Numbered from the stretch's first letter, positions 1,101 to 63,086 are shown. The stretch: 64,000 bases of DNA from Patescibacteria group bacterium (GCA_028714495.1 JAQTMH010000004.1:128232-192231); one strand, 5' to 3'. Program-made: numbers and translations. Notes: a model not told the origin generated them from the letters alone.

Positions 1101-1145
1101 ATCTGAAAATACAGACGGCCTCGATTGCGAATAGTTCTAAATAGT

Positions 1146-4100
1146 ATGAGTTTTCTTGAAAAACGACCAATAAAAAAAATCGCGGTACTGGTGCTTATGA
1201 CCGGTTTTTTGATCTGGGCATATAATCCTCAAATTCTTTCAGCTGATGATTCTGTAACATTACTACCTTCGGCTGACGGTACAGATGATAGCGCTAATTG
1301 GACAAATACTGTGCCCACTGCTTGTAATAGCACGGATTGCTTTGTAGAAGTTGATGAAAGCAGCGGCGCAACGTGTACCAATAGCGACGGCGATAGTTCT
1401 TATATCGTCAGTAGCACTAATGGCGCGAATCAAACTTTTGATATTGACGAGTCAAGTATTCCAAATAACGCCGTAATAACCCAGATTACCGTTGTTACTT
1501 GTGATAAAAGAGGCGAGGGAGGAGCAAAAATGCGAACGAGAATATGTGTTGATGGGACCTGCACTAATTCAGGAACAGATATCGCTTTAGACAGTTCATA
1601 CTTAGAACATTCTCAAGCTCATGCCGTTAGTATCACAAAAACAGCCGGTACGGATATTGAGATTGGCGTATCAAACACTGCGGCCAAAAGCGCCAGGGTC
1701 AGTAAAATTTCGGCAATCATTACGTATGATGCGACCGCCCCGGCGGCAGTAACTAACCTAGCTGCCTCCAATGCCACTGGTTCATCAATTGATCTTTCTT
1801 GGACTGCGCCAGGAGATGACGGAGACACAGGAACTGCTGCTACCTATGACGTTCGTTACTCCACCTCAACTATTACCGAAGGGAATTGGTCATCAGCTAC
1901 CCAAGTCTCAGGCGAGCCTGTGCCATCCATTGCCGGTTCAAGTGAATCAATGACCGTTTCTGGCCTAAACTCCAATACAACCTATTACTTTGCCTTGAAA
2001 ACTTCAGATGAAGCGCCAAATGTTTCCGGGATTTCCAATGTACCCAGTCTGGCCACTTTAGATATTACAGCCCCAGCCGCCGTCTCTAATCTGGCTGCTA
2101 CTAATGCCACTGGCTCATCAATTGATCTTTCTTGGACCGCGCCAGGTGACGACGTAAATAGCGGGACTGCCAGTTTGTACGATGTTCGCTACTCCACCTC
2201 AAATATTACCGGAGGAAACTGGTCATCAGCTACCCAAGCCACAGGCGAGCCAACACCTTCCATTGCCGGTTCAACTGAATCAATAACCGTTTCTGGCCTT
2301 AATTCTGAAACTGCTTACTATTTTGCTCTTAAAACTTCAGATGAGGTGCCGAATGTTTCCGGACTTTCTAATGTACCCAGTTTGGCCACGCTCGATATCA
2401 CGGCGCCGGTCATAAGCAATATCTCCAGCGGCACTCCTGGCGAGACATCGGCGACTATCACCTGGGATACGAATGAAGCGGCCACTTCGCAGGTTGAGTA
2501 TGGTCCCACAACGAGCTATGGCTCGATGACGACCCTGGATGCTGATTTGGTTACCGCGCACTCGGTTGCCATTACCGGTTTAACTCGTGATACCGACTAT
2601 CATTTCCGCGTTAAATCAAAGGACGCTTCCAGTATTGAAGCAGTGTCAGGCGACGAATCTTTTACCACTAGCGTGCTTCCTGGCCCGGTTATTTCAAATA
2701 TTTCCTCATCCAATATCAAACAGACTGAAGCTGCTATCACTTGGACTACTGATACAGCCAGCACTTCGCAGGTTCTCTATGGTACAACCATTGGTAATTA
2801 TACGGAATCGACAGTTTTAGATACAGATCTAGTCACTTCTCATTCTGTGTCACTGACCGGGCTGGCCGCGGCCACTGTTTATTATTATGTGGTTCAATCA
2901 GTGGATGCCGGTTCTCACGCTTCTGTTTCCTCGGAGTATTTTTTTACCACTTTGAACAGCAATGCCCCTCCAGACACTGTTCCGCCAGAAATTTATAGCA
3001 TAACGGTCTCGGATATAACTCAGACAGCCGCGACAATTGCCTGGACGACTGATGAAGCGGCCACTTCACAGGTTGAGTATGGTTTAACCGCTGATTACGG
3101 CTACAGCAGCGCTTTAGACAGCACCATTGTTACCGCTCATTCTATTTCCCTAGCCGAATTGGAGGGGGGGACACTCTATCATTTCCGAGTTAAATCAAAA
3201 GATAATTCGGATAACGAGGGAGTATCGGCTGATCAGAATTTTACCACTGAATCAGGCGAAGAATTACCTCCGGAGGAAAATGACACTACTCCGCCGGTTA
3301 TTTCCGATTTAGTAGCAAACAGTATTACTGACAGTCAGGCCACAATAATTTGGGTAACAGACGAAGCGGCAACCTCGCGGGTTTTTTACGGAACAACGAG
3401 CGGCGGTTATTCTAATATTACTTCAGAGGATGCGACAAAAGTACTGTCTCACAGCAGGGTGATTAGCGGGCTGTCCTCGTCAACTAGTTATTATTATATT
3501 GTCAAATCAAAAGACGCTTCGGGCAATGAAGCCAGTTCAGGCGAAAAATTTTTTATTACAGCCAAACCGGCACCGACGGCGCCCGGTGCTCCGGGAACTA
3601 CTAAACCAAAGACTTCACCCGGTGGAACAGTAACAGAAAAAGAGATTTTACCTACCCAGGGGGATACTACTCCGCCTGTAGTGACGCTTGAAAAAATTAC
3701 CCCCAATCCCACCGATAATCAGAAACCGACGATAACCGGAACAGCCACAGACCAAGACGGTGTCATCGCCAGCCTGGCCATTTCGCTTAATGACGGAAAA
3801 ACCTGGCATCCGGTCACAACTATAGAGGGTCTGGGTGCAGATAAAGCGGTTTTTACCTATATTCCCGCGCTTTTGGAAGACGGCGATTTTTCCATTAAGG
3901 CCAGAGCCCGGGATAACAGCGGAAATGAAGGATTTTCCGAAACCCAGGCGCTAGTCATAGATTTACTCCCTCCGATTTTTGGAGGAAAAAGCATCTTGAT
4001 CGGCAACCAATCCGCGTCCATATCTTACGATGGCACTGTTAATTCAGTCGTCGGCTTGACCCAAAAAATCGTAATTTCTGCCAAAGGCGGGCCAACAGCG

Positions 4101-5108
4101 ATGACAGTGGCGGCCCAGTCACAAAATAGCAAAGAACCGGATCAGATTTTTGACTTGCGTTATGTCGAGTCGGAAAATCTTTGGGCCGGCGATTTGGTTT
4201 TTGCCTCGAGCGGTATTTATAATCTTGAGCTTACCGCTAAAGATGGGGCTGGCCATATTACCAACCAGGTCTTGAATGCTATTATCGTTCAACCAGCCGG
4301 CGAAGTTCTGGAGGCAAAAACAGGCCGACCGGTTTCTGAAGCACGAGTAGCCCTTTACCAACGCGATTCGTCCACAAATCAGTGGATATTATGGCCAGCC
4401 GAAGCCTTTGGCCAGCATAACCCGCAGGTTACTGGCGAAAATGGTGAGTATCAGTTTTTTGTCCAGCCGGGCCAGTACTATCTTGAAGTTTATAAGGAAG
4501 ATTGGCAGTTGACGGTAAGTCGAATTATTACTTTAGATATGAACGGGCCGATCAGTGGTGACATTCTTCTTACCAAAAAACCCAGCCTTCATCTAGGAAT
4601 AATCGATATCACTCTGTCTCCATGGTCCATCTTTGCCAAGTCCGTGACCGTCTCTCCGTCAACCTCTACCCAGGAATCGTCAAGCCATCTTTTTGATCAG
4701 GTTATCGGCCAGCCAGCGCCTGAATTCATCCTGGCTGATTCCAACGGCGGAAAAAATTGGTTATCCGACCAACGAGGCAAAAAAGTGGTTATTTCAGTCT
4801 GGAATACCTGGGACAGCAAATCTCAAGAACAGCTGGCCTGGCTTGAACAAGTTGCCGAGAAAAAAGGAATTTATACGACCATCCTCCCTTTGGTGCTGCA
4901 GGAAAGTCCGAGTAAGGTACAGACATACCTCAAACGGGGAGGGTATTCCATCGTCAGTCTGGTTGATACGACAGGCGCCTTTACCACATTATTTCCCGTC
5001 ATATCCGTCCCCCAGCACTTCTTCATTGATCGCAAGGGCATTCTGCGTGATATTTATGTTGGTTTTTTAGATGAAGACGACCTGATTCAAAAAGTCGACG
5101 CTTTATAG
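1146..5108 (+). CDS. giant secreted/anchored surface protein: FN3-like repeat array, carboxypeptidase-regulatory-like domain and C-terminal TlpA/redoxin-like domain lacking the CXXC motif
   Basis: ATG at 1146 gives signal-peptide-like MSFLEKRPIKKIAVLVLMTGFLIW (the ORF-track start at 1125 is TTG). Two 111-aa repeats (…LSWTAPGDD…YDVRYSTS…YYFALKTSDE…) and four ~95-aa repeats (…ITWTTDEAATSQVEYG…YHFRVKSKD…). C-terminus resembles a redoxin fold (…VISVWNTWDSKS…) with no cysteines. Confidence 0.7.
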   Translation: MSFLEKRPIKKIAVLVLMTGFLIWAYNPQILSADDSVTLLPSADGTDDSANWTNTVPTACNSTDCFVEVDESSGATCTNSDGDSSYIVSSTNGANQTFDIDESSIPNNAVITQITVVTCDKRGEGGAKMRTRICVDGTCTNSGTDIALDSSYLEHSQAHAVSITKTAGTDIEIGVSNTAAKSARVSKISAIITYDATAPAAVTNLAASNATGSSIDLSWTAPGDDGDTGTAATYDVRYSTSTITEGNWSSATQVSGEPVPSIAGSSESMTVSGLNSNTTYYFALKTSDEAPNVSGISNVPSLATLDITAPAAVSNLAATNATGSSIDLSWTAPGDDVNSGTASLYDVRYSTSNITGGNWSSATQATGEPTPSIAGSTESITVSGLNSETAYYFALKTSDEVPNVSGLSNVPSLATLDITAPVISNISSGTPGETSATITWDTNEAATSQVEYGPTTSYGSMTTLDADLVTAHSVAITGLTRDTDYHFRVKSKDASSIEAVSGDESFTTSVLPGPVISNISSSNIKQTEAAITWTTDTASTSQVLYGTTIGNYTESTVLDTDLVTSHSVSLTGLAAATVYYYVVQSVDAGSHASVSSEYFFTTLNSNAPPDTVPPEIYSITVSDITQTAATIAWTTDEAATSQVEYGLTADYGYSSALDSTIVTAHSISLAELEGGTLYHFRVKSKDNSDNEGVSADQNFTTESGEELPPEENDTTPPVISDLVANSITDSQATIIWVTDEAATSRVFYGTTSGGYSNITSEDATKVLSHSRVISGLSSSTSYYYIVKSKDASGNEASSGEKFFITAKPAPTAPGAPGTTKPKTSPGGTVTEKEILPTQGDTTPPVVTLEKITPNPTDNQKPTITGTATDQDGVIASLAISLNDGKTWHPVTTIEGLGADKAVFTYIPALLEDGDFSIKARARDNSGNEGFSETQALVIDLLPPIFGGKSILIGNQSASISYDGTVNSVVGLTQKIVISAKGGPTAMTVAAQSQNSKEPDQIFDLRYVESENLWAGDLVFASSGIYNLELTAKDGAGHITNQVLNAIIVQPAGEVLEAKTGRPVSEARVALYQRDSSTNQWILWPAEAFGQHNPQVTGENGEYQFFVQPGQYYLEVYKEDWQLTVSRIITLDMNGPISGDILLTKKPSLHLGIIDITLSPWSIFAKSVTVSPSTSTQESSSHLFDQVIGQPAPEFILADSNGGKNWLSDQRGKKVVISVWNTWDSKSQEQLAWLEQVAEKKGIYTTILPLVLQESPSKVQTYLKRGGYSIVSLVDTTGAFTTLFPVISVPQHFFIDRKGILRDIYVGFLDEDDLIQKVDAL

Positions 5109-9510: not shown

Positions 9511-10410
9511 ATGACCATGAAAATGAAGAAAATATGCTATTCTGTCGCTCTAGGGTTGTTAATGGTCGGGATTTTTGTTTTGCCCCAGGTGGTTTTAGCT
9601 GCCAGCGTATGCAAAACCGGCCAGATTCTTCCTGAGTGTGTGTGCGACGGAAACTGCAATCTCGACGATTTTGTAGTGATGTTTGTGAATCTGATAACGT
9701 TCTTCCTCGGGATCGTGGCCATCATCGCTCTGTACTATTTCGTCAATGGCGCCTTCATGCTGGTTATCTCAAGCGGGAGCCCAGAGAAGATCGCCAGCGG
9801 CAAGAGCACCCTGGTCAATGCCCTGGTGGGACTTTTTGTCGTACTATCGGCCTGGGTGATGATCAATACTTTGTTTATGCTGTTTACCGGGAGCGATACG
9901 GTCTTCGGAGAAAAATGGTGGAAATTCAAAACTGCTCCGGCAACTGAAGAGCAAAGAGAAGAGCCAGCCGGCGGAGGCGGTACGGCAAGTTGCGAAAATT
10001 TGGAAGCCACGGCTGCGAGCTACAATGTCCCTTATCCAGCTCAAAATGCCGCGCCGCTTGACGCATTGATAAATTGCATCAAAGAAAACGTCCAGCCCGG
10101 AATGATAGATGAAAATCAGATATATACCATTGATCGCGATCACCCAAGCTGCAATTACACGCGCGGCGATCCGAAATGCGAAACCAGCGGCGTTTGTTCT
10201 CATTCGCATAATTCCTGCCATTACGGAGGCTTCAGCGGAATTGACGGAGCGATGGGCGTTGATTTTAACGCAGCGGCTGGATATTCGGAACAAGAGTTAA
10301 ACCAAGCTATTCTAATTGCCGCGAATGGACCATGTGAAAGTTATTTTAGTTCTCAAATATTTGAAACAGACCACACGCATTTGAACGCACCCGGCTGCGG
10401 TGGTAACTAA
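9511..10410 (+). CDS. Cys-rich secreted membrane protein with TrbC/VirB2-like two-helix pilin-like core (paralog of 32554..33693)
   Basis: Signal peptide, Cys motif CKTGQILPECVCDGNC, two hydrophobic helices separated by SGSPEKIASGKS, then Cys-rich C-terminal domain. Same layout as the 32554 gene. Confidence 0.4.
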   Translation: MTMKMKKICYSVALGLLMVGIFVLPQVVLAASVCKTGQILPECVCDGNCNLDDFVVMFVNLITFFLGIVAIIALYYFVNGAFMLVISSGSPEKIASGKSTLVNALVGLFVVLSAWVMINTLFMLFTGSDTVFGEKWWKFKTAPATEEQREEPAGGGGTASCENLEATAASYNVPYPAQNAAPLDALINCIKENVQPGMIDENQIYTIDRDHPSCNYTRGDPKCETSGVCSHSHNSCHYGGFSGIDGAMGVDFNAAAGYSEQELNQAILIAANGPCESYFSSQIFETDHTHLNAPGCGGN

Positions 10411-10514: not shown

Positions 10515-13500
10515 ATGTCAAAACGACAATTTTTCAATGCCAAACCGGGTAAAAACAACCAAGCGAAAAAGTCAAAACAGAGCCAAGTTTCCCGGACTAA
10601 CGCTTTTCATCAAAAGGGTTTTGCCCTGATCGGGAAGCAGTTATTGCCAATTATCGTGGTAGTTATAGTGGCGGTGTTAGCCGCGGCAGTAATTTTATAC
10701 CGGCAGTCAACCGAAACAAGTATAACGTCGGTCAGTCGTCCGGCTCTGACCGGCCAATTCGGCCTAAAGGCGGTTAAGACGGACGCGGCGGGTTTGGACC
10801 CGGCAACTTCTTTTATTTTAAGCTCAAGCAAACCGCTGGCCAACGGCGTCATTGAGGAAATTGTGAAGTTTACGCCCGAAGTGAAATTCAAAGTCAAAAA
10901 GCTGAAGGAAGAATCAAGCCGCGGCAATTTTTTCAAAAGGGTTTTCGCCCAGGACAATTCAAACAGCCCAAGTGAAGCCGCTTCTGCCTACGAATTGAAG
11001 CCGGAAGAATCGCTGAATAGTGACACCAACTATAAAGTCAGCATTTCAGACACCAAATACGCGGACCGGCAGTATGATTGGGCTTTTCCGGTCAAGGCAA
11101 AATTTCAAGTGCTCGAGTCGCACCCGCGGGATCATGGCGCGTCGGTGCCGACTAATTCAACCATCGAGTTCAAAATGAACCGGGAAAAATTTATCGAGCC
11201 GGAAAAGTATTTCACTATCTCCCCGGAGGCCGCCGTAACAACGGAACAGCGGGGCACCACCTTGATTTATAAAACCCAGGGCCTGGCAGAAAAAACGCTT
11301 TATACCGCGGTTCTGAAAAAGGGTTTGAAGGTTGAAGGGTGCGACGACGTCTTGGAGCAAGACTTCACTTTTACTTCTGAAACTGGGGAAGAAAATTATC
11401 AAAGCGGCCAGCCGTATTTTTATTTAAATGGAGATTTCTTGGAATTTCTGCCAGACAAACAGCCGTATTTTGAGGTGAGCTATTACAATTATGAACCGAG
11501 TAATTTAACGGCCAATCTATACAAATTCGACAAGCCGGAGGAATTCCTAAGCTCATATCAAGATAGCCGCGACTGGGATTACCGCTGGACCAGTTATTTC
11601 TGGAACGAACGGGGTAGCCAATATGAACCAGATCCCGAGCAGCTAATCCTTACCTTTCCGATCAATGTTATCCAAGTTGATTACAAGAAGTTTTTCGAAG
11701 TGCCCCAATCTCTCCAGGCCGGCTACTATTTCCTCGATTTTGAGGCGGCGGGAAAACGACATCAGGCCTGGATGCAAATCACGCCAGTCGCGCATTATTA
11801 CTCTGTTACCTCAAAAAACAGCCTGATTTGGCTATATGATTTTCCGACCCGTCAAGCGCTTCAGAATAATGAAGTCAGCTTTGTCGATCAGGCAAGCGGT
11901 GAAATAAAACTGGGCGATACTGACAGCAACGGTTTGCTCGAATTTGCTACGCCCGAGGCGCTGACTAAGGATGTTTACGATTCGCCGACTCCGAAATTCT
12001 ATAAAGTGCCGGTTGGCAGTCAGCCGGTTTATGTCAGGATCAGCGATGGCGGCAACTACCGGTCAGAAGCGCCGGCTGGCGATGCCTACTGGGATTATCT
12101 ATCGCTGGAACGGATGGTTTACAAAATGAGCGATACCATGCGGTTCTGGGGGGTGGTCAAAGGCCGGCAGGAGGATTTGCGGGAAAAGAAGGTAACCATT
12201 GCCGTGACCAATAGCTACTATTATTATTTCGAAGGCTGGTACGGGGGTTTCAATCCAGGCGATTTGCCGACGGCCTTGATTACCCAGGAAGCGGTGATCT
12301 CTCCCTTTGACACGATTCAAGGCGAGATGTCTTTTACCGGTTTGACACCCGGCATGTACAATTTGGAGGTTAGATACGGTGATCAGGTTATTTCCACGGC
12401 AAGCTTTGAAGTAATGACCTATCTCAAACCGGCCTACCAGATTTCGGTGACGCCATCCAGACGATCGCTGTTCGCTGGTGAAGCAGTCGATTTCAATGTT
12501 GAAGCGAAGTTCTTTGACGGAACGCCTGTACCCAACCAGACGCTCAAGTATTCAGGCTGGTGGAACAGCCAGGTTGAAGGAGAAATTACTTTAGACAGCG
12601 ATGGCCGAGGCGTTTTCAGCTACACCCCCGAATATATCAATGATACTTATTACATGAGCTATCCCAGGAGCTTGGAATTTACCTTCCGGCCAAATCTGGC
12701 AGAGGAAGGCGACATCTACGGCACTGGCAGCGTAATGGTGTTCGGGCCGAAATACTACCTGGAGTCGAAAACCGCCAGCCTGGAGAACCATCAGTACCAA
12801 CTGACGGCTAAACTGAATAAAATTGTTTTAAGCGATAAAGTTTCCAGCAATTACGGAGAGTATTCCGCTTCAGAATATATCGGCGACCCGGTTCCGAATT
12901 ACGCGCTGAAGGCCAAGGTGATAAAAACGACCACTGAAAAAAGAGAAGTTGGCGAATACTATGATCCAATCAATCGCGTGACCCAAAAAACATACGATTA
13001 TACGCCTAAGGAAGAAACAGTCGAGGAAGTTGAAGGCAAAACCGACGCTGACGGCGAGTGGGAAATCATTAGAACGTTTGTTCCCGAAGCGGGTGTCTAT
13101 TATCGGGTGGTCTTCTCGGGGAGCGATGAGGGCGGCCGCGGTTTTGAAGATACTGAATATATTTACAGCGGTTATAGCGTGCCGTCCGGCAAGCAATTCG
13201 CCATCAGTCTTGAGCTGAATAGTACCTCGGCTGAAAACTCTTACTCGATCGGGGATCCGGTAAAAGCCGAAGTGAAGATAACCCAGGGTGAATTGCCAGC
13301 CAACGCCCAAACACTCTTTTATCGCTATCAAAATAAAATAGACCGAACCGCGGTAAAATTAGAATTGATCCTGGAAGAGAAGTTTGAAGAATCGTTCGCT
13401 CCTTCGGTTCAATACCGGGCGGTAATTCTGGGGCCAACGGGTTTTGAGGAAACCCAGGATGTCACCGCGTCTTACCGAGAGTCTGACAAAGCCTTGACGA

Positions 13501-16049
13501 TTGAAGTGAATCCGGATAAAAGCGGCTACCGTCCTGGCGAAAAAGTGACTCTCAGTGTCGTGGTTAAGGATAAAGACAGCCAGCCAGTTTCAGCTCAGGT
13601 GAATTTAGCCGCGGTTGACGAAGCGCTTTTCCATATTGTGCCCTATACCTGGCAGCCCAAGATTCTCGAAACGCTTTACCGGAATATTTATCTCTGGCCA
13701 ATTTCAGCCGGCTCTGACTACGCTTTAATGGAGGGAGGGGCCGAGCGCGGCGGTTGTTTCGGCGCTGGCACAAAGGTATTGTTGGCTGACGGCCAATCAA
13801 AACCGATTGAGGCAATCACGGTTGGTGATCGGATTATGGCTGGGGCAGGAGATAGCTTCGGCGCCCTTAAACCCGCGGTGGTTCAAGGTGTCTCAAGTCA
13901 TTTTGTTAATGAATATATGGTTGTAAATGGTTCACTGGTGGTAACTCCGGAGCATCCTTTATACGTCAATGGAAAATGGCAGCCGGCTGGGAATCTAAAA
14001 CTGGGCGATAGCCTATTAACCAAGGATGGAACAAGCCAATTAATTACTTCAGTTGAAACTATCAAGGACAAAGCTATCCTAGTATATAATCTGGTTGTCG
14101 GCACCTACCACACCTATTTTGCTGACGGCATTTTGGCTCATAATGCTGAAAAAGGCGGGGGCTTGAGATCAAAATTCGCGGACGTGGCGCTCTACCAGAC
14201 GGTTCAAACAGATCAAACGGGCCAGGGCTCGGCCACTTTTACGGCTCCAGACAATATCACTTCTTGGAAAGTAACAGCCTTAGCCTATGCTCCAGAAAAA
14301 ATGATGGCTGGCCAGACCGCCAAACTGGTACCGGTTTCATTGCCAATCTTCGCGGACAGCACTCTCAATTCCGTTTATCGCAAAGATGACGAGCCGACTG
14401 TTCGCGTTCGGGCTTTTGGCAACGAATACCAGACCGGGCAGCCGACCGAGTTTACTTTAAAGAGCGTCTCGCTTGGCTTAGATCTGAAGGAGACCTCGAG
14501 TGAACGTCAGGTAAAATTCCAGCTTAACGCTTTGCCAGCCGGTGACCATGATCTGACCCTGGGCGTCAAACAGGGAGATAAGCAGGATTCACTGAAGCGA
14601 ACGGTTAAGGTCATCGAGAATCATTTTCAGATGGCTCAAGCCAAGGAATACGCGGTTTCAGAAGGACTTAAGGATATCGAAGGCAACGCCAGCGCTTTCA
14701 CCCACTTGGTTTTTTCTGAAGCGGGACTAGGCAAGTATTTCTCGCCGTTGATATCGCTGACTTATCAAGGAGGCACGCGTTCTGACCAAACCGCTTCCGC
14801 GTATTTGGCTGACCGGCTCCTGGCTAAATATTTCAAATATCCTGAGCCGGAAGATCAGCTGGATTTGAGCAATTACATTGTGTCTAGCGGCGGTCTGGCG
14901 CTCTTTCCCTACAGCGATACTGATTTGGAGCTCTCGGCTAAGCTGGCTGATTTAGCGACTGATTATGTGTATAAGGAACAACTGGTAAGCTATTTCACGA
15001 GCTCTCTGAGCGATGAAAAAGCCGATCAGAGTCGTGTCAGCCAGGCGCTTTACGGTTTGGCCAGTTTGGGCGAGCCGGTTCTGGCTAAGATAAATACCAT
15101 CCTGCAATCAAAGGATTTAACGCTTGAAAACCGGACATACTTAGCTTTGGGCTTGATTCGATTAGGCGATAAAGAAAACGCCCGGCTGGTTTATCAGGAG
15201 AAAATTAAAACAGCCCTTCGGTTTGAGGGCGGCGAAGCCTGGCTAGACGGGGAATCTGACATCACCCGTCGGGTCAAGCTAACCGGGCTGGTCGGGGTAT
15301 TAACAGCCGAATTGAATATTACCGAGGACGCCAAGGCGGTTTGGGGCTATATTTCAGGTCATTATCCCGAGAGCGACCTCGATGTTCTGGAGAGGACCTT
15401 AATGCTCCGAGCGCTCCTGGCCAATGCCAATCAGGCGCCAGTCAGCTTTAAACTCCAAACTGATAGCCGGACCGAGACCGTAAAACTTGAGAATGGCGAT
15501 GTCTATACGCTTGATCTATCAGCCGAGGAACTGGCCAGCATTAAATTCAGCGAGGTTAAAGGTGACACTACCTTGGTCAGCTGGTTTGAACGGAGTAAAA
15601 ACACGGACGAACTTCAGACAAACCCCGATCTTAAATTATCCCGCAGCTACCTGGTGGATAATCACTCGACCACGACCTTCTCAGAAGGCGATATTGTGTT
15701 AGTCCGCCTAGACCCTAATATCGCCTCAAGCGCCATTGACGGCACCTACCAAGTGGTTGATTATTTGCCCAGCGGACTGAGGCCGATTACCCAGCTCTAC
15801 AACCGCAATTTGACTACCGAGGAGGTCTGCAACCCGCTTTGGTATCCGACGAAGATAGTTGATCAGGCAGCCTACTTTACGATTTACAAAGACTTTGATA
15901 AAACCGACAAATGCACCAACCGGACCATCAATTATTACGCCCGGGTAGTCAGTCCTGGCAGCTACTCGGCTGAATCAGCGGTTATCCAATCGCTTAAGAA
16001 TTTGAATAGCCTAAACCTCTCTGAAGTCCAAACCGTCGAAATCAAATAG
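10515..16049 (+). CDS. alpha-2-macroglobulin-family giant protein (N-terminal TM anchor, MG-domain array, A2M receptor-binding-like C-terminus) with an inserted Hint domain; no CxEQ thioester motif
   Basis: LRSKFADVALYQTVQTDQTGQGSATFTAPDNITSWKVTALAY matches the A2M MG7-like/'A2M_N_2' signature (RxxFxEtwlW…tdxxG…PDsiTtWr). C-terminal …YQVVDYLPSGLRPI… resembles an A2M receptor-binding domain. Only 5 Cys, none in a CxEQ context. Confidence 0.7.
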   Translation: MSKRQFFNAKPGKNNQAKKSKQSQVSRTNAFHQKGFALIGKQLLPIIVVVIVAVLAAAVILYRQSTETSITSVSRPALTGQFGLKAVKTDAAGLDPATSFILSSSKPLANGVIEEIVKFTPEVKFKVKKLKEESSRGNFFKRVFAQDNSNSPSEAASAYELKPEESLNSDTNYKVSISDTKYADRQYDWAFPVKAKFQVLESHPRDHGASVPTNSTIEFKMNREKFIEPEKYFTISPEAAVTTEQRGTTLIYKTQGLAEKTLYTAVLKKGLKVEGCDDVLEQDFTFTSETGEENYQSGQPYFYLNGDFLEFLPDKQPYFEVSYYNYEPSNLTANLYKFDKPEEFLSSYQDSRDWDYRWTSYFWNERGSQYEPDPEQLILTFPINVIQVDYKKFFEVPQSLQAGYYFLDFEAAGKRHQAWMQITPVAHYYSVTSKNSLIWLYDFPTRQALQNNEVSFVDQASGEIKLGDTDSNGLLEFATPEALTKDVYDSPTPKFYKVPVGSQPVYVRISDGGNYRSEAPAGDAYWDYLSLERMVYKMSDTMRFWGVVKGRQEDLREKKVTIAVTNSYYYYFEGWYGGFNPGDLPTALITQEAVISPFDTIQGEMSFTGLTPGMYNLEVRYGDQVISTASFEVMTYLKPAYQISVTPSRRSLFAGEAVDFNVEAKFFDGTPVPNQTLKYSGWWNSQVEGEITLDSDGRGVFSYTPEYINDTYYMSYPRSLEFTFRPNLAEEGDIYGTGSVMVFGPKYYLESKTASLENHQYQLTAKLNKIVLSDKVSSNYGEYSASEYIGDPVPNYALKAKVIKTTTEKREVGEYYDPINRVTQKTYDYTPKEETVEEVEGKTDADGEWEIIRTFVPEAGVYYRVVFSGSDEGGRGFEDTEYIYSGYSVPSGKQFAISLELNSTSAENSYSIGDPVKAEVKITQGELPANAQTLFYRYQNKIDRTAVKLELILEEKFEESFAPSVQYRAVILGPTGFEETQDVTASYRESDKALTIEVNPDKSGYRPGEKVTLSVVVKDKDSQPVSAQVNLAAVDEALFHIVPYTWQPKILETLYRNIYLWPISAGSDYALMEGGAERGGCFGAGTKVLLADGQSKPIEAITVGDRIMAGAGDSFGALKPAVVQGVSSHFVNEYMVVNGSLVVTPEHPLYVNGKWQPAGNLKLGDSLLTKDGTSQLITSVETIKDKAILVYNLVVGTYHTYFADGILAHNAEKGGGLRSKFADVALYQTVQTDQTGQGSATFTAPDNITSWKVTALAYAPEKMMAGQTAKLVPVSLPIFADSTLNSVYRKDDEPTVRVRAFGNEYQTGQPTEFTLKSVSLGLDLKETSSERQVKFQLNALPAGDHDLTLGVKQGDKQDSLKRTVKVIENHFQMAQAKEYAVSEGLKDIEGNASAFTHLVFSEAGLGKYFSPLISLTYQGGTRSDQTASAYLADRLLAKYFKYPEPEDQLDLSNYIVSSGGLALFPYSDTDLELSAKLADLATDYVYKEQLVSYFTSSLSDEKADQSRVSQALYGLASLGEPVLAKINTILQSKDLTLENRTYLALGLIRLGDKENARLVYQEKIKTALRFEGGEAWLDGESDITRRVKLTGLVGVLTAELNITEDAKAVWGYISGHYPESDLDVLERTLMLRALLANANQAPVSFKLQTDSRTETVKLENGDVYTLDLSAEELASIKFSEVKGDTTLVSWFERSKNTDELQTNPDLKLSRSYLVDNHSTTTFSEGDIVLVRLDPNIASSAIDGTYQVVDYLPSGLRPITQLYNRNLTTEEVCNPLWYPTKIVDQAAYFTIYKDFDKTDKCTNRTINYYARVVSPGSYSAESAVIQSLKNLNSLNLSEVQTVEIK
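13755..14144 (+). other. Hint (mini-intein / bacterial intein-like, A-type) domain embedded in the A2M-like protein
   Basis: Block A CFGAGTKVLLADG, block B VTPEHPLY, block G ILAHN. +1 residue is Ala. Gly-rich flanks GGAERGG / AEKGGG. 130 aa, no endonuclease domain. Confidence 0.7.
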
Positions 16050-16065
16050 GAATATACTGCCGATA

Positions 16066-16980
16066 TTGTTCACCGGGCCTCTGGCCATCGCGTTGGCAGG
16101 GGTCTGGTTGGCATTGATAGCGCAGAATTTAGGCAAAGCCAATAACCAAGCGTCGGGATCGCAGGTAAAAGGTGAGAGACTGGTAGCCCTGGCCTCGGGT
16201 TTTTCGGATATAGCCCAGCCGCTGGAACGGCTCATGGCTTCGACAAAACCGGCTGTGTACCAGAACGGTACACAGCAAGCCGCGGCCATGGTACAAATTG
16301 GCATCACCTCCCATCATTTACCGACGGCCGCGCCGTTAATTGCCAGTTTTTACGCCACGCTTCAAAGCCGGTCCGGACCGCGCCAGGTTTTTGTGATCGT
16401 GGGACCGGATCACCTCGAACGCTGCAATCAGTATGCCTCAACCACGCAATTGCCATATCAAACGCCTTTCGGTTTATTGCCAGTCGATCAGGCAATTACT
16501 GAAGATTTGATCAAGGCCGGAGTTAATATTGACAATAATTGTTTTGAGGGCGAGCACGCGATTGGAACCCAGGCGATTTTTATCAAGCGTGAGTTTCCCG
16601 AAGCTTTGATTGTTCCATTGCTTCTTTCTTCGGCTACAACCGATTCAATTATCGAAAAAATCGTCGGTGTTCTGAAAAATTATTCTGAAGAGATAACAGT
16701 TATCGGCAGCATTGATTTTTCACACGCATTAAATTATGAGCAGGCCTTGAGAGTGGATAGCGAATCTGACAAAATGATCGCCGGATTAGAATCTCTCGGT
16801 TTGACGCTTTTCCACACAGACTCGCCGCCCACTGTCAGTTTACTGGTTGGTTTAGCCAAGGTTCTCGGCTCGGCTAAGGCGGATATATTCCAGCGGGCAA
16901 ATTCGTTTGACTTCAACGGCCAAAAAGAAAATACTACCGGCTACCGGAATATTTTCTTTGAGGGGGAAAGCCAACCATAG
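16066..16980 (+). CDS. MEMO1-family (AmmeMemoRadiSam system protein B-like) protein with N-terminal hydrophobic segment
   Basis: …VIVGPDH…SIDFSHAL… resembles Memo-family His/Asp motifs. TTG start, exact 5' end uncertain. Confidence 0.45.
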   Translation: MFTGPLAIALAGVWLALIAQNLGKANNQASGSQVKGERLVALASGFSDIAQPLERLMASTKPAVYQNGTQQAAAMVQIGITSHHLPTAAPLIASFYATLQSRSGPRQVFVIVGPDHLERCNQYASTTQLPYQTPFGLLPVDQAITEDLIKAGVNIDNNCFEGEHAIGTQAIFIKREFPEALIVPLLLSSATTDSIIEKIVGVLKNYSEEITVIGSIDFSHALNYEQALRVDSESDKMIAGLESLGLTLFHTDSPPTVSLLVGLAKVLGSAKADIFQRANSFDFNGQKENTTGYRNIFFEGESQP

Positions 16981-26252: not shown

Positions 26253-28016
26253 ATGGATTCTTCCGTTTCAAATCAACCAACCTCCAATACTCAAATCAAT
26301 CAGAGGATTGAGACTGTTTTGCAGAGCCAATCGCCCAAAGAAGCCTTAAAGCTTCTTCGGCAAATCGGGGGCCAGGGGATGGGCGAGTTGGGAGTGAATA
26401 TCGAAGCTCAAAAGCAGCGTTTGAGAGTAGTCGCCTTGCCTCTATTACCCACTTCTGAATTTCTTTTGCTTTTCGAGGGCGATTTGCGGGCCACCTTCGA
26501 ATTTAATTTGACTGAACGTTTGAGGACGCGATTGGTGTCACTGCCGCTAGTCTCCCAAGACGAGTTTAAACGAACGATCCTGTCAACGCTTCAAAATAAC
26601 ACGAGCGAATTTGTTTCGGGAGATCAAAATACCGCCCAGAAATGGATTGAAAAGTTTTTAGCCAGCCACCAAAATCCCGATGCGTTTATCGCGGCGGCGC
26701 CAGAATTTAAGTCCCTGACCGTCGAGGATCAGCTCAGAGTTCAAAGGCTTTTGCAGGTAGTCCAGCACGCCCTGATATCAGTTACTACGCCAGAGGGATT
26801 GGAAGATGAAATGATGATTCGGGATGAAACTGGGACTTTCAAAGTTTTAAAAGCGGGCGAATTGGTTGAATTGGGTATTGAGCCACGGGAGAAACCGCCA
26901 GCCGCTCCGCCAATTTCAGCCGTTCCGGCGGCACCTTCACAAATAAAGGCCGAAGTCTCATCATCGCGGCCCATCGCTTCTGTTCCGCCGGCCCCCCTAG
27001 CTGTTAAACCAGTACAAAAAACCCCGGCTGATTTCTACTTTCACCCTGAAGATGAAAATGAAGTGCATGACCACCGTGCCCGTTTGGCAAAAATAGATCC
27101 GATTCCGGAGAGCAATTTTGACACAATTGTCGATCAGCTAGTTAGAGATTTTCATCTAGAATTTTCTGGCCAGCCAATCGCCGATCGGTTTAGGAATATT
27201 ATCAAATCTCGTCTCAATGATGTGCGGGATATAATTGAAACACAAAACATGCTTAGCCGGCCAATCGAGGTAGGCGGCGTGGGCCTTGAAGCCGGCTTGG
27301 CCATGAAGATACTCTCCAAAGTTGAGGAAGAATCTCTAAAGATCCATCAGGCGCATTTAGCCAGAGCCGAACCAACTCCTTTGATTGTCCCAGTGCCCAC
27401 CAAAGCCACACCTCTTCCGCCTGAACCGGGGGATGCGGTGCCGCCAGCCGTGACTGTGCCACCGGTTGTTGAGAAGGTTGTGATACCAAAGGCTCCCCCC
27501 GAGATTCAAAAAATTGAGCCAAAACCGGTTGAACCGACGCCCGAACCTAGGCCGGCCTTAGTTGTTCCGCCAATTCAAAAACCTAAAGAATCGCCCAGAC
27601 CGATTCCCCAAAGAATGAGTGGCACGCCGGTCATTAATAGGCCGATCGAATCAAGCCGTCCGACAGTTTCCGACATCCGGCGTCCGGTTAAAACAATCGG
27701 TCCGGTCCAAGAATTGGTCGAGCTGACTCTGAAGGATTATCGCCGCCTCGGTAAAACAATCGAAGAATCAAACGAGAAGATAATGGAAAAACTAGATTTG
27801 TTAGAGGAGGATTCTTATCTCAAAAGAGCCGAGGGGGTCAAGGCTTGGAAAAGCGGCGAGGTGAACCAACTTTACCTCTCGATCGGGCGTGAAAGCATGG
27901 AAAAAGATTTAGCCGTGATCGATGTGATTCGTAAACGCCGGGAGGACGGGTTGCCTTATCTCACGAAAGAAGAATTTGAAATGGTGGCCGATTTGAATAA
28001 GAAAATAAGTTTCTAA
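26253..28016 (+). CDS. hypothetical Pro-rich protein
   Basis: Long PxP-rich linker (…PTPLIVPVPTKATPLPPEPGDAVPPAVTVPPVVEKVVIPKAPPEIQK…). No TM. Confidence 0.4.
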   Translation: MDSSVSNQPTSNTQINQRIETVLQSQSPKEALKLLRQIGGQGMGELGVNIEAQKQRLRVVALPLLPTSEFLLLFEGDLRATFEFNLTERLRTRLVSLPLVSQDEFKRTILSTLQNNTSEFVSGDQNTAQKWIEKFLASHQNPDAFIAAAPEFKSLTVEDQLRVQRLLQVVQHALISVTTPEGLEDEMMIRDETGTFKVLKAGELVELGIEPREKPPAAPPISAVPAAPSQIKAEVSSSRPIASVPPAPLAVKPVQKTPADFYFHPEDENEVHDHRARLAKIDPIPESNFDTIVDQLVRDFHLEFSGQPIADRFRNIIKSRLNDVRDIIETQNMLSRPIEVGGVGLEAGLAMKILSKVEEESLKIHQAHLARAEPTPLIVPVPTKATPLPPEPGDAVPPAVTVPPVVEKVVIPKAPPEIQKIEPKPVEPTPEPRPALVVPPIQKPKESPRPIPQRMSGTPVINRPIESSRPTVSDIRRPVKTIGPVQELVELTLKDYRRLGKTIEESNEKIMEKLDLLEEDSYLKRAEGVKAWKSGEVNQLYLSIGRESMEKDLAVIDVIRKRREDGLPYLTKEEFEMVADLNKKISF

Positions 28017-29163: not shown

Positions 29164-31089
29164 ATGGCTAATATCAATTTATCCAAACAAGCCCAACCAG
29201 TTCAGGAACAAGTCGGACCAAAGCCGGCCCTCTCGACCCAAGAAAAAAAAGAAGTTGAGACGGGCGCGATTGAACGCGAGAAGCGGGCAATCGAAGCCGA
29301 GCGGATCTACCGAGAAGGCGTGGTGACGATTCAGGACTTGATTGCCCCGCCGGCCCTCAAGGTAATGCCGAATTATATTGAACTGGGCGGCAAATTTATC
29401 CGGACAATATTTGTTACGACCTATCCGCGCTTTGTCTCGGTTGGCTGGTTTGCTCCGATAGTCAATTTAAATCTAACGCTGGATATCGCGATGTTCTTTT
29501 ACCCGATCAGCTCGGATATCATATTGAAGCAACTTCGGAATAAAGTAGGCGCCCTCGAAGCCCAGATCATGGGTGACGCGGAAAAGGGATCAGCCCGCGA
29601 TCCGATGATTGAAACGGCGCTCCGGGACGTGGAGAAGCTCCGGGACGATTTGACCCAGGGAATGGAAAAATTTTTCCAATTCGCGCTCTACGTGACGATC
29701 TATGCCGATTCGCTGAAAGAATTAAACGAACTTTCGGATCGGATTGAAGGCATGTTTGGTTCGCGACTAGTCTACAGCAAGCGAGTTTATTATCAGGCTG
29801 AACAGGGTTTTAATACCACCTTGCCATTGGCGACTGATCTGCTGAATATTGCTTTCAATATGAACACCTCGCCCTGCGCGTCGTCTTTTCCTTTCATTTC
29901 TTCCGAATTGACCTCTGACAACGGCATTCTCTACGGCATCAATCGGCACAATAACAGCCTGATTCTTTTCGATCGCTTCAGCCTCCAGAATGCCAATTCC
30001 TGCGTTTTTGCCACCTCGGGCGCGGGCAAAAGCTATGCCGTGAAACTGGAAGTTCTGCGCAGCCTGATGCTTGGCACTGACGTCATCATTATTGATCCGG
30101 AAAAAGAATACAAATATCTCTCTGACGCGGTTGGGGGAGCCTACGTTAATATCTATTTAAATTCTGATTCCAAAATAAATCCTTTTGATCTGCCGCGGCC
30201 CGTGGGCGAAGCCGACAAGCCGGCCGACATCATTCGTTCGGCGGTCATAACGCTGAAAGGGCTGATGCGCCTGATGTTGGGAGAATTTACTCATGAGGAA
30301 GATTCATTAGTTGACCGGGCTTTGATTGAAACCTATGCCAAGAAAGACATCACGGCCGACTCCGACCTGACTAAAATTGAGGCGCCTCTGATGTCCGATT
30401 TCGAAGAAGTGCTTTCGGGCATGGAGGGCGGCGATCAGCTGGTCAAACGTTTGAAGAAATATACCGAAGGTACGTTCTCCGGTCTCTTTAATAGCCCCAC
30501 CAATATCGACGTCAAAAACCAGCTGGTCATATTCAGCGTGCGCGACTTGGAAGACGAGCTAAGACCGATCGCCATCTATATTATTGTCAATTACATCTGG
30601 AACATAGTCCGCTCCGAGCTGAAAAAGAGAATTATGGTAATTGATGAAGCCTGGTGGCTGATGCAAAACGAAGATTCAGCCAAATTTATCTATGCCCTGG
30701 TCAAACGTTGCCGCAAATACTACCTCGGTGTTACTACCATCACCCAGGACGTAAATGATTTCTTGCGCTCGCCCTACGGTCAGGCGATTGTCACCAATTC
30801 CTCGCTTCAGCTGCTGCTTAAGCAATCACCGGCCGGGGTTGATATCTTGGCCAAAACATTTCTTCTGACCCAGGGAGAGAAATATCTGCTGCTGGAGTGC
30901 GGTGTCGGCGAGGGGATTTTCTTTGCCGGGGCTCGACACGCCGCCATCAAAGTAGTCGCTTCCTATACCGAGGACCAGGTGATAACTTCCGATCCAAAAC
31001 AGCTCTTGGAGATCGAGGCGGCGAAAAAGGAATTTGAACAATCAATGGCCGATGATGAAGGGGTTGAATCAGCCGCGCCCAGGTCCTAA
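29164..31089 (+). CDS. VirB4-like type IV secretion ATPase (split VirB4, part 2)
   Basis: Walker A ATSGAGKSY, Walker B MVIDEAWWLM, …ITQDVNDF…. Confidence 0.7.
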   Translation: MANINLSKQAQPVQEQVGPKPALSTQEKKEVETGAIEREKRAIEAERIYREGVVTIQDLIAPPALKVMPNYIELGGKFIRTIFVTTYPRFVSVGWFAPIVNLNLTLDIAMFFYPISSDIILKQLRNKVGALEAQIMGDAEKGSARDPMIETALRDVEKLRDDLTQGMEKFFQFALYVTIYADSLKELNELSDRIEGMFGSRLVYSKRVYYQAEQGFNTTLPLATDLLNIAFNMNTSPCASSFPFISSELTSDNGILYGINRHNNSLILFDRFSLQNANSCVFATSGAGKSYAVKLEVLRSLMLGTDVIIIDPEKEYKYLSDAVGGAYVNIYLNSDSKINPFDLPRPVGEADKPADIIRSAVITLKGLMRLMLGEFTHEEDSLVDRALIETYAKKDITADSDLTKIEAPLMSDFEEVLSGMEGGDQLVKRLKKYTEGTFSGLFNSPTNIDVKNQLVIFSVRDLEDELRPIAIYIIVNYIWNIVRSELKKRIMVIDEAWWLMQNEDSAKFIYALVKRCRKYYLGVTTITQDVNDFLRSPYGQAIVTNSSLQLLLKQSPAGVDILAKTFLLTQGEKYLLLECGVGEGIFFAGARHAAIKVVASYTEDQVITSDPKQLLEIEAAKKEFEQSMADDEGVESAAPRS

Positions 31090-46567: not shown

Positions 46568-46694
46568 AATTTTTTACGTTAATTGATTTGACTTAGACTT
46601 AATATTATGTTAAAATATACAATGATTGGCAATATTTCAAATAAATTATATAATTATTAAAGATTACTGTCAAAGGCCGATAAAAGAGACAATA

Positions 46695-49600
46695 ATGAAA
46701 CATGCTGTCAGAACAATAAAAAAGATATTTTGCATCAAGGCATTGTTTATTATTATTGGTTTGGCTTCCGTTATAGTAATAATCAGCGTTATTCCGGGGA
46801 AAGAAGCATCAGCAAGGCCAATTTGCATGCAGACCGATGAGGGGGAAAAATCAATTGATTCTTATAGTCCTGAAGAAGGGATGGTTGGACAGACAATTAC
46901 GATAGTCACTTACGGCTGCTATCTGGATTACGAAAACAATACGGAATTAATTTTGAGAAACCAAAATGACCACAACCTAATGATAAATGGTGTGATTACG
47001 GGCCAAGCGCCACGTCCGGACTTAGGTGCTGGTTATTGGGAAGCAACGGCAGAGTTTGATTTAGCTGGTGCCCAGTCGGGTTACTATGATTACTTGGTTC
47101 ATTGGACTCCGAATAGTCCTCCAGCTGGCAGTTATTGGCATGAATCACTAGCTGGTAATCCGTTTAATGCCTTTACTTCAGCAATAGTCGGCTGGGGCTG
47201 GTTCGGAGCTTCGACCGGAGTTCCGGCCATGGCCTCGCCTGGCTGGGAAAGCCTTAGTTGTTTGAATAGCTATGAAGGACACGAGAGTGGTACATGTGCT
47301 GATGTCGGCGGTATTGATTATGGGGTAGGCCTGACCCAGGGCGCCGGTACTTATCCTCTCGTCGGTCAAGGCTGGCTGGGGGAATACACAGACAATGATA
47401 CAAATCAAGCAAATAATGCTCCCACTGGCTGGGTCACATACAATCCCGCGGAAAGCAGCTGGCCTTCCTCGGTAGACGTACCCGGAACTGTTGATGGCCC
47501 GGTAATGTACCACAGCGACACGGGAATAATAGAGGGCTGGGGCAGGATAAATACCTTGAAACAATATGGTCAGACCCAAGCCTGCGCGACTGAGCTCTAC
47601 CGCAGTTGGGCTGAAACCAGATTTAATCCATTGGTTGTTAATTCAACCAATGTAAAGATGGCCCAAACCAGCGATGGTGTTTTGCATGTTGTCTGGAAAA
47701 ATAACGTTGCGAGTAAAATTTATTATCGGCAATTTAGGAACGGTATTTGGACCAGTCCAATGGTGCTGTCCGACATAGCCAGAACCAGTAATAACGACAA
47801 GACAGACATTTCGATTGATGGTAATGATACGATCCACGTTACCTATACTTATAATTTTAATCAGAAAATCCATCATATCGCTTGTGAATACAGCGAATCA
47901 AGCCAGTGCTGGTGGAACAGCAACAACTGGTGGATTAATAATGATTTTTCTACAGCTATTCCGGAAAATGACCCAACTAAAAATAAATTGAATCAGTCGA
48001 TCGTTTCGGACAATAACCGACTTTACTTATTTTATGAGGGCACCACGGACATTTTAACCCCAGGTTTTGAGGGTATTTATTATTCAAGATCAAGCGATAA
48101 ATATGGCAATGGTTGGAGTGACCCAGTGAAGCTTTCCCAGAATGATGCTCATACTCCAGACTCGGTAATTGATTATAAAAGAAACCTATATGTTGTTTGG
48201 AAAGAGGGTAACAATATTATATACCGTAAGGGTGTTGCGGGAGATCCAGTAGATTGGGAAGACGTTGCCCAAATTTCAGAGGAGGGTACGACTAACAGCA
48301 ATCCTCAGATAGCGGTTGGTCCAGGCGATCCGACCGGATCATATCCGCATATAGTTTATAGCACAAATCGTGCTGGCAGCAGTGAGATATACTATCGTTA
48401 TTTTTCGCAGACAGGCGGCTGGAGTACCGAGGAAAACTTAACAGAAACAGCGGCGCCAAATGACGAATCCGAGCCGTCAATCGCCATTGGCAATGATTAT
48501 CGTGTTCATGTGGTTTATCGTCTTTATAATGGCATCACTAATGATATCCGCCACCGGGAGACGATAGATAATAAGATCTGGTCTACTGTGACCGATATCA
48601 CGAATGATGCCGGGCTATCAACACATATCAAGCCGGTAGCACTGGCTGATTCTAATAACCACGTGCGGGTGATCTCGGAAAGCAACCGCGGTTTGACAAT
48701 TACTAATTCGTCAGATTTACTGTGCGCCAATCCCGGCAGTTGGGGCAATGACTGGGGCTGGATTAGTATGCGCGGCGGTCTCGGAGGCTATGACACGCCT
48801 GAGGATCTGGCTGATTCTCTGGGCCCAATGGCTAGTTGCTTTGGTGATGGAGAAACCGGCGGATGCGATCAAGCGACTCTCAGCTGCAAGGTATGCGAGG
48901 TTGATGAAGATTTCTATACCAGCCCAGATGATAATAATCCTCCACTCTATGCCTGCAATACCTGTACTAAGTGCGGTTTTTGCCGAAACGATCCAACCAA
49001 GTATTGCTCACCAGCCACTGCTGATGCTGACTGCGGCATAGCGGGCGCCGTTTGCCAGTCAAAGAAAGCCTGTCGCCGGAGCGGTACAGACTGTTCAAAC
49101 GGGGAATCCTGCGAGGTGATGCTATCTGGTCCGGATAATACCTGCAACGCGGTTTGCGAGCAGTGCGCGACCTGCAATCTCTGGGGAGTTTCTGCGGTGG
49201 GTGAAATTGGCACCAGCAGCAGCAAATTAATATTTCATGGCTTTGGCTGGTCAGCCGGCGGAATGGTAGCCGTAGATCCGTCTTATCCTCCTGGGACGTA
49301 TGATTCAGGCAAGCTAGAGATTGAAAGCGATATATCGGATAGTTGTCCGAACCCGAATAATTGCGAATGTACTAACCGAGCCCAATGCGTTAGCTGGGGC
49401 TGGCTGGTTGAAGATCCGCCCCCGCCCGCGCTACCTCATTCGCCAAGCACCGGTTACTGCATAAGGTCCGAAACGATGGGTGTGGCGGGAATAAGCGGCT
49501 GGGGGGTTTGCCGGGTTCAAAACTCGTTGCCCAATCTGATAGATTTCAACAAACGGTTGCCAATCACCGAGGAAGGAAATTATTATCTGACCATGTCAGC

Positions 49601-58819: not shown

Positions 58820-58923
58820 AAAGATATATCAATTAGGTCTTTCATCAGAATAATTAAACATTGTTGCCTTTTAGGCCGGTTCTAGAGCGGCTGAAAAGGC
58901 CGATCCCGAAGGGAGGTGAAAAA

Positions 58924-60213: not shown

Positions 60214-60317
60214 AAAACTATGTCAATTAGTTCTTTTGTCAGAATAATTAAACATTGTTGCCTTTTAGGCCGGTTCTAGAGCGGCTGAAAAGGCCGATTC
60301 CGAAGGGAGGTGAAAAA

Positions 60318-63082: not shown

Positions 63083-63086
63083 GTTT

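Follow-up and report, generated by a model that had tools for sequence, protein, structure and literature searches.

Alpha-2-macroglobulin (A2M) is a protease trap, the bait loop of which is normally cut by proteases. Here we describe an A2M-like protein in which this loop carries a Hint domain, encoded on a stretch of 64,000 nucleotides from a Patescibacteria group bacterium (GCA_028714495.1 JAQTMH010000004.1:128232-192231; the whole stretch is called the window below). The best reading of our analysis is that the Hint domain became fixed a single time, in the bait loop of a Patescibacteria-wide family of A2M-like surface proteins that have no thioester motif.

Among the closest described systems are ECAM (YfhM) of Escherichia coli and SaA2M of Salmonella, which share with the present protein a multidomain fold, a membrane tether, an extracytoplasmic location and a bait-region domain at the same place. 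In ECAM this domain is inserted within MG8, a macroglobulin (MG) domain that corresponds to eukaryotic MG6; the density of bait residues Arg923-Leu942 is lost upon elastase cleavage, Arg956 of the cut bait touches the C-terminal MG domain, and in the activation model a disordered segment is untethered once the bait is cut, and displaces those contacts that keep the trap native (PMC4498604). The loop motifs can also be aligned (LRFGG...KRGG in ECAM and GAERGG...AEKGGG here). However, ECAM has a CLEQ thioester, is fired by foreign proteases and is paired with pbpC, whereas in the protein described here RxDQ stands in place of this motif, the bait contains a Hint domain and the partner gene is Memo-like. 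Complement C3, C4 and C5 are said to be cut at the equivalent MG6 insertion point, with the chains held together since MG6 is built from both (reportedly described by Janssen et al. in 2005), and reportedly also carry an inserted domain, the anaphylatoxin, at the same MG6 site; in complement it is a furin-type host protease that cuts, not a built-in autoprocessing domain. Type II bacterial A2Ms, such as MagD of Pseudomonas aeruginosa, are alike in having the A2M fold without a functional thioester (PMC5764988, PMC3735191), but MagD acts in a mag operon complex, and no Hint domain is reported there.

The inserted domain has its own relatives. Type-A bacterial intein-like (BIL) domains form an N-terminal thioester and cleave at their C-terminus by Asn cyclisation, with the cleavage products dominating, and in ligation the freed amine attacks the thioester (PMC4031507). 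The BIL domain of Clostridium thermocellum (2LWY) shares with the present domain Cys1, TxxH, His-Asn, a length of ~130 residues and the lack of both a +1 nucleophile and an endonuclease, but the latter differs in being fixed at a single site in a single host family throughout a bacterial radiation, in the trigger loop of an A2M-like trap, with a Gly-Gly donor and a Lys at +1 to +3. BIL2 of Tetrahymena thermophila BUBL1 (6Y75/6TMM) is the best structural match, and it links the C-terminus of its upstream domain to a Lys epsilon-amine through an isopeptide bond, also on other proteins and without ATP (PMC8616854); the Gly-Gly before Cys1 and the Lys past the C-terminal junction in our family are reminiscent of this. 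BIL2 is eukaryotic, however, and is flanked by ubiquitin-like domains, none of which is present here, and isopeptide formation in the present family could be proposed only by analogy. Finally, the PT-HINT domains of polymorphic toxins, whose proposed role is autoproteolytic release of the part downstream, provide the best Pfam model for our domain, but what lies downstream here is a conserved half of an A2M scaffold, with neither a variable toxin tip nor an immunity gene.

Results

Position of the Hint domain in the bait loop

From the Pfam matches (A2M_BRD, A2M and bMG10), together with profile and Foldseek matches, it is clear that the protein of 1844 residues has the architecture of the A2M superfamily, an MG-domain ring together with a bait-region domain, a CUB/TED region and an MG domain at the C-terminus (Table 1). 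The family profile matches the ECAM (E 4.5e-44), SaA2M, TEP1, A2M and C3 structures by sequence, and an AlphaFold2 (AF2) model of residues 650-1844, with a predicted local distance difference test score (pLDDT) of 85.5, matches ECAM (E 9e-43), SaA2M, TEP1, A2M, CD109 and C3-C5 in Foldseek. AF2 was run on an input of 42 sequences.

When compared with Hint-less homologues, the Hint domain is a clean insertion between a conserved GAExGG motif and the signature R-x-x-F-x-D-T-A ... PDNxTSW. With E. coli yfhM (ECAM, 1653 residues, CLEQ at 1187) as the alignment reference for the bait region, the insertion point falls between LRFGG (G948-G949) and KRGG (K955-R956-G957), that is at ~949-955, and the variable segment preceding the Hint domain aligns to the ECAM bait at ~923-949. 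This bait-like segment of ~16-23 residues varies across the family and is disordered over residues 1064-1079 in the AF2 model, where residues 1064-1079 and 1211-1215 are among the few stretches with a pLDDT below 50; the Hint and MG domains are confidently predicted. The ECAM alignment, taken with the ECAM structure, thus locates the Hint domain within the bait-region domain and at the bait's C-terminal edge. Since a variable, disordered bait-like segment still lies upstream, it appears to be an addition to the bait and not a substitute for it.

The initial annotation of this DNA, made from the sequence alone, had proposed that a Hint domain sits in the bait loop, between Gly-rich linkers, and the profile-HMM (hidden Markov model) check agrees, since the domain lies between A2M_BRD and A2M; the linkers GGAERGG and AEKGGG can be read directly in the translation. 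It had further placed the domain immediately upstream of an A2M signature taken as the start of MG7. The position ahead of the A2M domain holds, but 'MG7 start' is imprecise because a single MG domain harbours the bait-region domain (PMC4498604), and the strand that follows the insertion first completes this host domain of the bait.

Apart from the predicted N-terminal helix, sequence inspection revealed no second strongly hydrophobic segment in the protein, and the remainder is predicted to be extracellular. A strong hydrophobic 19-mer within the first 120 residues is found in 112 of 119 full-length family members. The protein contains four Cys residues, at 276, 1081, 1772 and 1800.

It may be added that the AF2 model of residues 650-1844 fits protease-activated ECAM (trypsin-activated 4ziq, template modelling (TM) score 0.53; 4rtd, 0.40) and active CD109 (0.42) better than native ECAM or SaA2M (0.22-0.27), which is a weak hint only, because the model lacks the N-terminal 649 residues and the arrangement of domains in a prediction cannot be relied upon.

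Identity of the Hint domain

The domain starts with CFGAGTKVLLADG, contains TPEH (within TPEHPLY) as block B and ends in ILAHN. It is recognized by the Pfam model PT-HINT (PF07591; E 8.8e-17 in the full protein and 1.9e-18 for the domain alone), and the Hom_end_hint and Vint models also exceed their thresholds. Its best sequence match in the PDB is the C. thermocellum BIL domain 2LWY (2.2e-11 across the entire domain). The AF2 model of the domain with flanks of 10 residues has a Hint fold with a pLDDT of 89.5 and a predicted TM score of 0.83, with disorder in the flanks only, and its Foldseek matches in the PDB are, in rank order, Tetrahymena BUBL1 BIL2 (6y75/6tmm; E 2e-12, TM score 0.81, 28% identity), 2LWY, mini-inteins and Hedgehog. 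Coordinates, Pfam and fold model are therefore all in accord with the complete 130-residue Hint domain of the initial annotation, and BIL domains head the structural matches of the predicted fold.

Judged by its sequence motifs, the domain has the type-A BIL configuration, namely Cys1, block B TxxH, a terminal His-Asn pair and a +1 residue that is not a nucleophile, as had been proposed earlier. The +1 Cys, Ser or Thr of class 1 inteins is replaced by Ala1211 here, and non-nucleophilic residues occupy this position in 132 of the 141 family members counted below. With 130 residues, the domain leaves no room for a homing endonuclease. Canonical inteins are distributed sporadically, as mobile elements that often carry a homing endonuclease, and occupy conserved sites of housekeeping proteins. 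A canonical selfish intein was rejected on the above grounds and because the domain forms a single clade, lies at a variable-loop site and is present in 80/80 loci. A recent acquisition is likewise unsupported by base composition, the GC content of the domain being 0.456 as against 0.489 +/- 0.021 for windows of the gene; at third codon positions the GC content is lower, 0.415 vs 0.545.

The two flanks resemble each other (GAERGG at 13734-13754 and AEKGGG at 14145-14162), and AEKGG occurs on either side family-wide, which has the look of a motif duplication or of a cassette that brought its flanks along. In several proteins (P0025, P0036, P0098, P0139, P0153, P0158, P0160, P0114 and P0115), two to seven or more complete Hint domains closely related to the present one form head-to-tail arrays, in which every unit has Cys1 and His-Asn and the spacers are just K-G(-G-G), as in HN-KGGG-CF. 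If all Hint domains of such an array were active, it would cut itself into Hint units and KGGG peptides.

Conservation throughout the Patescibacteria

While the initial annotation had treated the domain as a single case, it belongs to a large conserved family. Residues 1001-1320 were searched exhaustively against representatives clustered at 50% identity, and 394 of these matched at E<=1e-30; among the best 150, ~135 have a length of ~1750-1900 residues and match the whole query in one stretch, which places their Hint domain at the same site. Motifs were counted in 141 single-Hint members (clusters at 50% identity, of which there are at least 141). Cys1 and the C-terminal His-Asn are present in all of them (141/141 each) and block B TxxH in 139/141. 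The residue at -1, Gly1080 in our protein, is Gly in 136/141, and most members have Gly-Gly before Cys1. At +1 the residues are D (60), E (25), A (23), Q (18), K (3), N (2) and I (1), with the nucleophiles S (7) and T (2) in just 9/141, and a Lys at +1, +2 or +3 is present in 140/141.

The Hint domain is also the best-conserved portion of the protein. In an alignment of 100 members over their whole length, 8 of the 29 invariant columns lie in the Hint domain, where column conservation is 0.56 (0.40 overall) and mean pairwise identity 0.445 (0.306 overall). In a neighbour-joining tree built from 176 Hint domains, a single clade takes in 140 of the 141 A2M Hints, and the sole outsider within it comes from a truncated A2M fragment. 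When one genome per species was scanned, at least 559 relatives were found, and all 80 loci kept for analysis have exactly one Hint domain (80/80). A second homologue search, with the 100-member alignment as profile, found no further Hint-bearing proteins.

According to their record titles, the loci come from Saccharibacteria, Doudna-, Portnoy-, Kerfeld-, Dojka-, Falkow-, Collier-, Uhr-, Peregrini-, Magasanik-, Gracili-, Morani- and Peribacteria. The titles 'uncultured Gammaproteobacteria', 'Pseudomonadales' and 'Nanoarchaeia' are also seen on metagenome-assembled genomes (MAGs) with a Patescibacteria-type gene (L002, L014, L015, L027, L028, L031, L032, L035, L037 and others), and are probably automated mislabels.

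The degenerate thioester site

A scan of the 1844 residues found no CxEQ motif, which is why we file the protein as A2M-like and thioester-less; the earlier statement that an A2M-like C-terminus is present without the thioester is thus correct, with bMG10 at the C-terminus and Arg1422 in the thioester column. Where homologues have G-C-x-E-Q, our protein has G-x-R1422-x-D1424-Q1425, and Arg is found in this column in 99 of 100 members. The column was read from an alignment that included thioester-bearing homologues, as an HMM built from Hint-bearing proteins only left the ECAM CLEQ region unaligned. Downstream of the Hint domain, CxEQ is absent in 139/141 members.

The nearest Hint-less relatives likewise have RxDQ. 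A divergent homologue (P0009; locus L085, 3542-11406) has a Hint domain at the same site together with an intact CVEQ and a Pfam match to TED. Strict coupling of Hint gain to thioester loss was rejected in view of both, and as read from these sequences the two events are associated but not strictly coupled.

Memo-like partner and genomic context

The gene directly downstream matches Pfam Memo and the NCBIfam model 'AmmeMemoRadiSam system protein B' (1.2e-25). Of the related loci (L002-L081), 73 have enough sequence, and in 52 of these the next gene downstream, on the same strand, is a Memo-like homologue. No radical SAM or AMMECR1 partner was seen adjoining the Memo-like gene in the window, and pbpC, the usual partner of ECAM, is absent here. 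The Hint-less relatives P0005 and P0006 are in different genomic settings without Memo. At the P0009 locus a Memo-PGA_cap fusion is encoded two genes upstream, and a gene for an extracytoplasmic function (ECF) sigma factor is also found upstream. The Memo-like partner might be a gate or regulator of processing, for which it is a candidate.

Elsewhere in the window, 1125-5108 (+) encodes a 1327-residue protein with many repeats of the fibronectin-III / purple-acid-phosphatase-N type and a C-terminal AhpC/TSA (peroxiredoxin/redoxin) domain, an unusual fusion of surface repeats with a redox domain. Two open reading frames (ORFs), at 46626-50816 (+; 1396 residues) and 26253-28016 (+; 587 residues), have no Pfam match at E<=1e-5. 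Type IV secretion is represented by a type IV secretion system (T4SS) pilin-like protein encoded just upstream of the A2M-like gene and by a TraG/VirB4-like ATPase, and a type IV pilus cluster is present as well. The cluster contains a gene for a PilB-type ATPase along with four pilin-like genes whose products carry N-methylation motifs, and two of these four are near-duplicates that have long antisense ORFs.

Table 1. Features of the A2M-like gene and its surroundings, numbered from the first nucleotide of the window.
Feature	Position	Strand	Description	Evidence
A2M-like ORF	10515..16049	+	1844 residues; membrane-anchored (predicted), without thioester, Hint domain in bait loop	
Predicted signal-anchor/transmembrane helix	10620..10700	+	N-terminal, residues ~36-62, behind a Lys/Arg-rich cytoplasmic tail	sequence
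A2M_BRD (bait-region domain)	13230..13634	+	residues 906-1040	Pfam, E 2.2e-06, above curated cut-off
Bait-like variable segment	13686..13754	+	residues 1058-1080, ends in GAE(G/K/R)GG motif	AF2, family alignment, ECAM alignment
Hint domain	13755..14144	+	residues 1081-1210 (130 residues), type-A BIL configuration	Pfam, PDB sequence match, AF2/Foldseek
Cys1081	13755..13757	+	codon TGT; Hint residue 1, putative nucleophile for N-S acyl shift	invariant in 141/141 and in 100-member alignment
Block B motif T1144-P-E-H1147	13944..13955	+		TxxH 139/141; H1147 invariant in 100-member alignment
His1209-Asn1210	14139..14144	+	C-terminal pair for putative Asn cyclisation	HN 141/141; invariant in 100-member alignment
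C-terminal flank AEKGGG	14145..14162	+	+1 is Ala1211, Lys1213 at +3	AF2 pLDDT <50; aligns to ECAM K955-R956-G957
A2M (PF00207)	14187..14417	+	residues 1225-1301, with family signature PDNITSW	Pfam, alignment
Degenerate thioester site R1422-S-D-Q1425	14778..14789	+	column of C-x-E-Q in thioester-bearing homologues	alignment; Arg 99/100
Bacterial MG10 (bMG10)	15657..15992	+	C-terminal, residues 1715-1826	Pfam
Memo-like gene	16066..16980	+	N-terminal hydrophobic anchor; 17 nt past A2M-like stop	Pfam Memo, NCBIfam
Secretion/pilus genes	9511-10410, 29164-31089, 54164-55921, 58861-59469, 60255-60857, 62462-63704			

Discussion

On balance we lean towards the view that the Hint domain is a domesticated type-A BIL domain and that its self-excision, which would open the bait from within, is its functional point. 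In the course of events that we propose, all the chemistry of which we infer, the protein would be exported and then retained at the membrane through its N-terminal anchor, and the Hint domain would fold between two disordered Gly-rich linkers. An N-S acyl shift of Cys1081 on the Gly1080 carbonyl would then give a Gly-Cys thioester, and cyclisation of Asn1210 would cut the C-terminal junction, whereby the Hint domain is excised and the bait loop opened from inside, with no attacking protease needed. The freed N-terminus A-E-K-G-G-G-L-R... would correspond to the K955/R956 segment of ECAM, which binds the C-terminal MG domain when untethered, and so could drive the conformational change. Because it is a single MG domain that the bait interrupts, both halves should remain together. 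Water or an amine could resolve the Gly1080 thioester, the candidate amines being the new alpha-amine, that of the Lys at +1 to +3 and that of a Lys outside the protein. We are undecided among the three possible fates, namely hydrolysis to a two-chain protein, internal aminolysis, in which a peptide or isopeptide bond rejoins the loop, and transfer to an external Lys, that is covalent capture.

That the Hint domain serves its host is much more likely than that it is a passenger element, because a useless insert in a variable, Gly-rich, indel-tolerant loop would easily be deleted, yet the domain is kept everywhere examined, and because it is more conserved than the scaffold that carries it. The initial annotation had proposed that autoproteolysis by the Hint domain could take the place of bait cleavage by a protease or give a two-chain mature protein. 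Selection seems to act on more than a simple cut, however, and ligation or acyl transfer to a Lys, which that annotation left out of account, is a serious alternative, since both junction chemistries are invariant, Gly-Gly precedes Cys1, a Lys lies at +1 to +3 and BIL2 is the closest structure. Several considerations nevertheless weigh against self-excision as the functional point. A single cut would open the bait, yet both junctions are invariant, and the Gly-Gly donor and Lys acceptor would suit ligation or transfer at least equally well. Constitutive self-cleavage would fire a spring-loaded trap at once unless it were regulated, and the Memo-like partner is a mere candidate for the regulator. 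Protease triggering may persist, because the bait-like variable segment is still found upstream. Moreover, strict co-descent of Hint and host is not proven, because the correlation between their pairwise identities is 0.41, below the 0.59-0.77 of equal-sized host blocks; this could mean stronger constraint or some exchange among Hint copies. The search design also favoured Hint-bearing proteins, and Hint-less alleles may exist within the Patescibacteria clade.

Excision might also be followed by rejoining of the halves. In such BIL-type splicing, the alpha-amine of the +1 residue or the epsilon-amine of the Lys at +1 to +3 would reseal the loop, leaving as the mature protein an ordinary thioester-less A2M, with the Hint domain being either an ancient passenger or a maturation timer. 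The aminolysis route is open to type-A BIL domains (PMC4031507) and BIL2 makes an isopeptide, the acceptor Lys is nearly universal in the family and lies within flexible Gly-rich flanks on both sides of the domain, and a ligated GAERGG-AEKGGG would look like the Hint-less loops, for example GAEGGGGG.... An element that must splice would also need both of its junction chemistries to be invariant, as they are. We nonetheless consider splicing rather unlikely, for in vitro the cleavage products of type-A BIL domains dominate (PMC4031507), a passenger in a variable, deletable loop should have vanished in some lineages whereas 80/80 loci retain the domain, and the conservation of the Hint domain exceeds that of the host protein. 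Slightly less probable still, in our estimate, is that the Hint domain is a replacement warhead for the lost CxEQ, in which a Lys of the target would attack the Gly1080-Cys1081 thioester. The membrane-anchored N-terminal fragment would then be joined through a Gly-Lys isopeptide bond to a protease or a host-cell surface protein while Asn cyclisation opens the bait and the trap closes, a ubiquitin-like conjugation without an enzyme cascade, as for Tetrahymena BIL2, that would serve covalent capture or adhesion and that the extracytoplasmic Memo-like partner might gate. The replacement of CxEQ by RxDQ across nearly the whole family would be accounted for in this way, as would the invariance of both junction chemistries, the Gly-Gly before Cys1, which resembles the ubiquitin C-terminus, and the location of the anchor on the very fragment that is to be attached; the closest solved structure, BIL2, conjugates the C-terminus of its upstream domain to Lys residues of other proteins without ATP. 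However, close Hint-less relatives also lack CxEQ and the Hint-bearing P0009 keeps CVEQ, so that the two features are not coupled one to one, the near-invariant Lys by the C-terminal junction would compete as an internal acceptor, and the target is hypothetical.

Two further readings are close to excluded. Hint folds are sometimes retained without activity, and what the bait loop displays might be a domain devoid of catalysis, as a structural element or a decoy; this general precedent is not matched by any specific support here, and across 141 clusters, with ~30% identity elsewhere, there is no variation in Cys1, in the block B His or in the terminal His-Asn, which makes an inert domain very improbable. 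Even further down the scale is a polymorphic toxin whose PT-HINT domain frees a C-terminal toxin, as the top Pfam match and the NCBI name of the identical database protein (MDD5342586.1, 100% identity, from a Patescibacteria MAG), 'polymorphic toxin-type HINT domain-containing protein', would have it. The 634 residues past the Hint domain are a conserved A2M / CUB-TED-like / MG10 part with an A2M-like fold, which aligns to ECAM 975-1649 and is not variable, and the next gene is the conserved Memo-like gene, not an immunity gene. With a conserved A2M C-terminus, no variable toxin tip and no adjacent immunity gene, the toxin reading was rejected, and the database name is misleading in that it steers users wrong.

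Type-A BIL/Hint domains are known, and so are thioester-less A2M-like scaffolds of bacteria; it is their combination that appears to be undescribed. As the initial annotation had supposed, our literature search of open-access papers and bioRxiv preprints, the coverage of which is incomplete, found no description of a macroglobulin combined with a Hint domain or intein, or of such a combination in Patescibacteria, and the annotation tables of the Southlakia transposon-sequencing (Tn-seq) paper have no entry for HINT, macroglobulin or Memo. What is new is that an autoprocessing domain has become fixed in a trap's trigger loop, Patescibacteria-wide (in hundreds of related species), and that the trap has a Memo-like partner.

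The natural role of bacterial BIL domains is largely unknown. Here one of them has been kept at one site, with its catalytic residues intact, across a radiation, and since every catalytic residue is conserved at that site, the native function of a BIL domain becomes directly testable. For the A2M and complement proteins, a trigger loop equipped to cut itself and to form a thioester would add a new mode of arming, maturing or firing to this fold, and with the Hint domain in the bait thioester chemistry may have been invented a second time, independently, in the A2M family. Patescibacteria are ultrasmall and live as epibionts on host cells. The surface protein described here is anchored in the membrane and widely conserved, as is its Memo-like partner gene, and it is therefore a candidate for a part in defence or covalent attachment in this epibiotic lifestyle.

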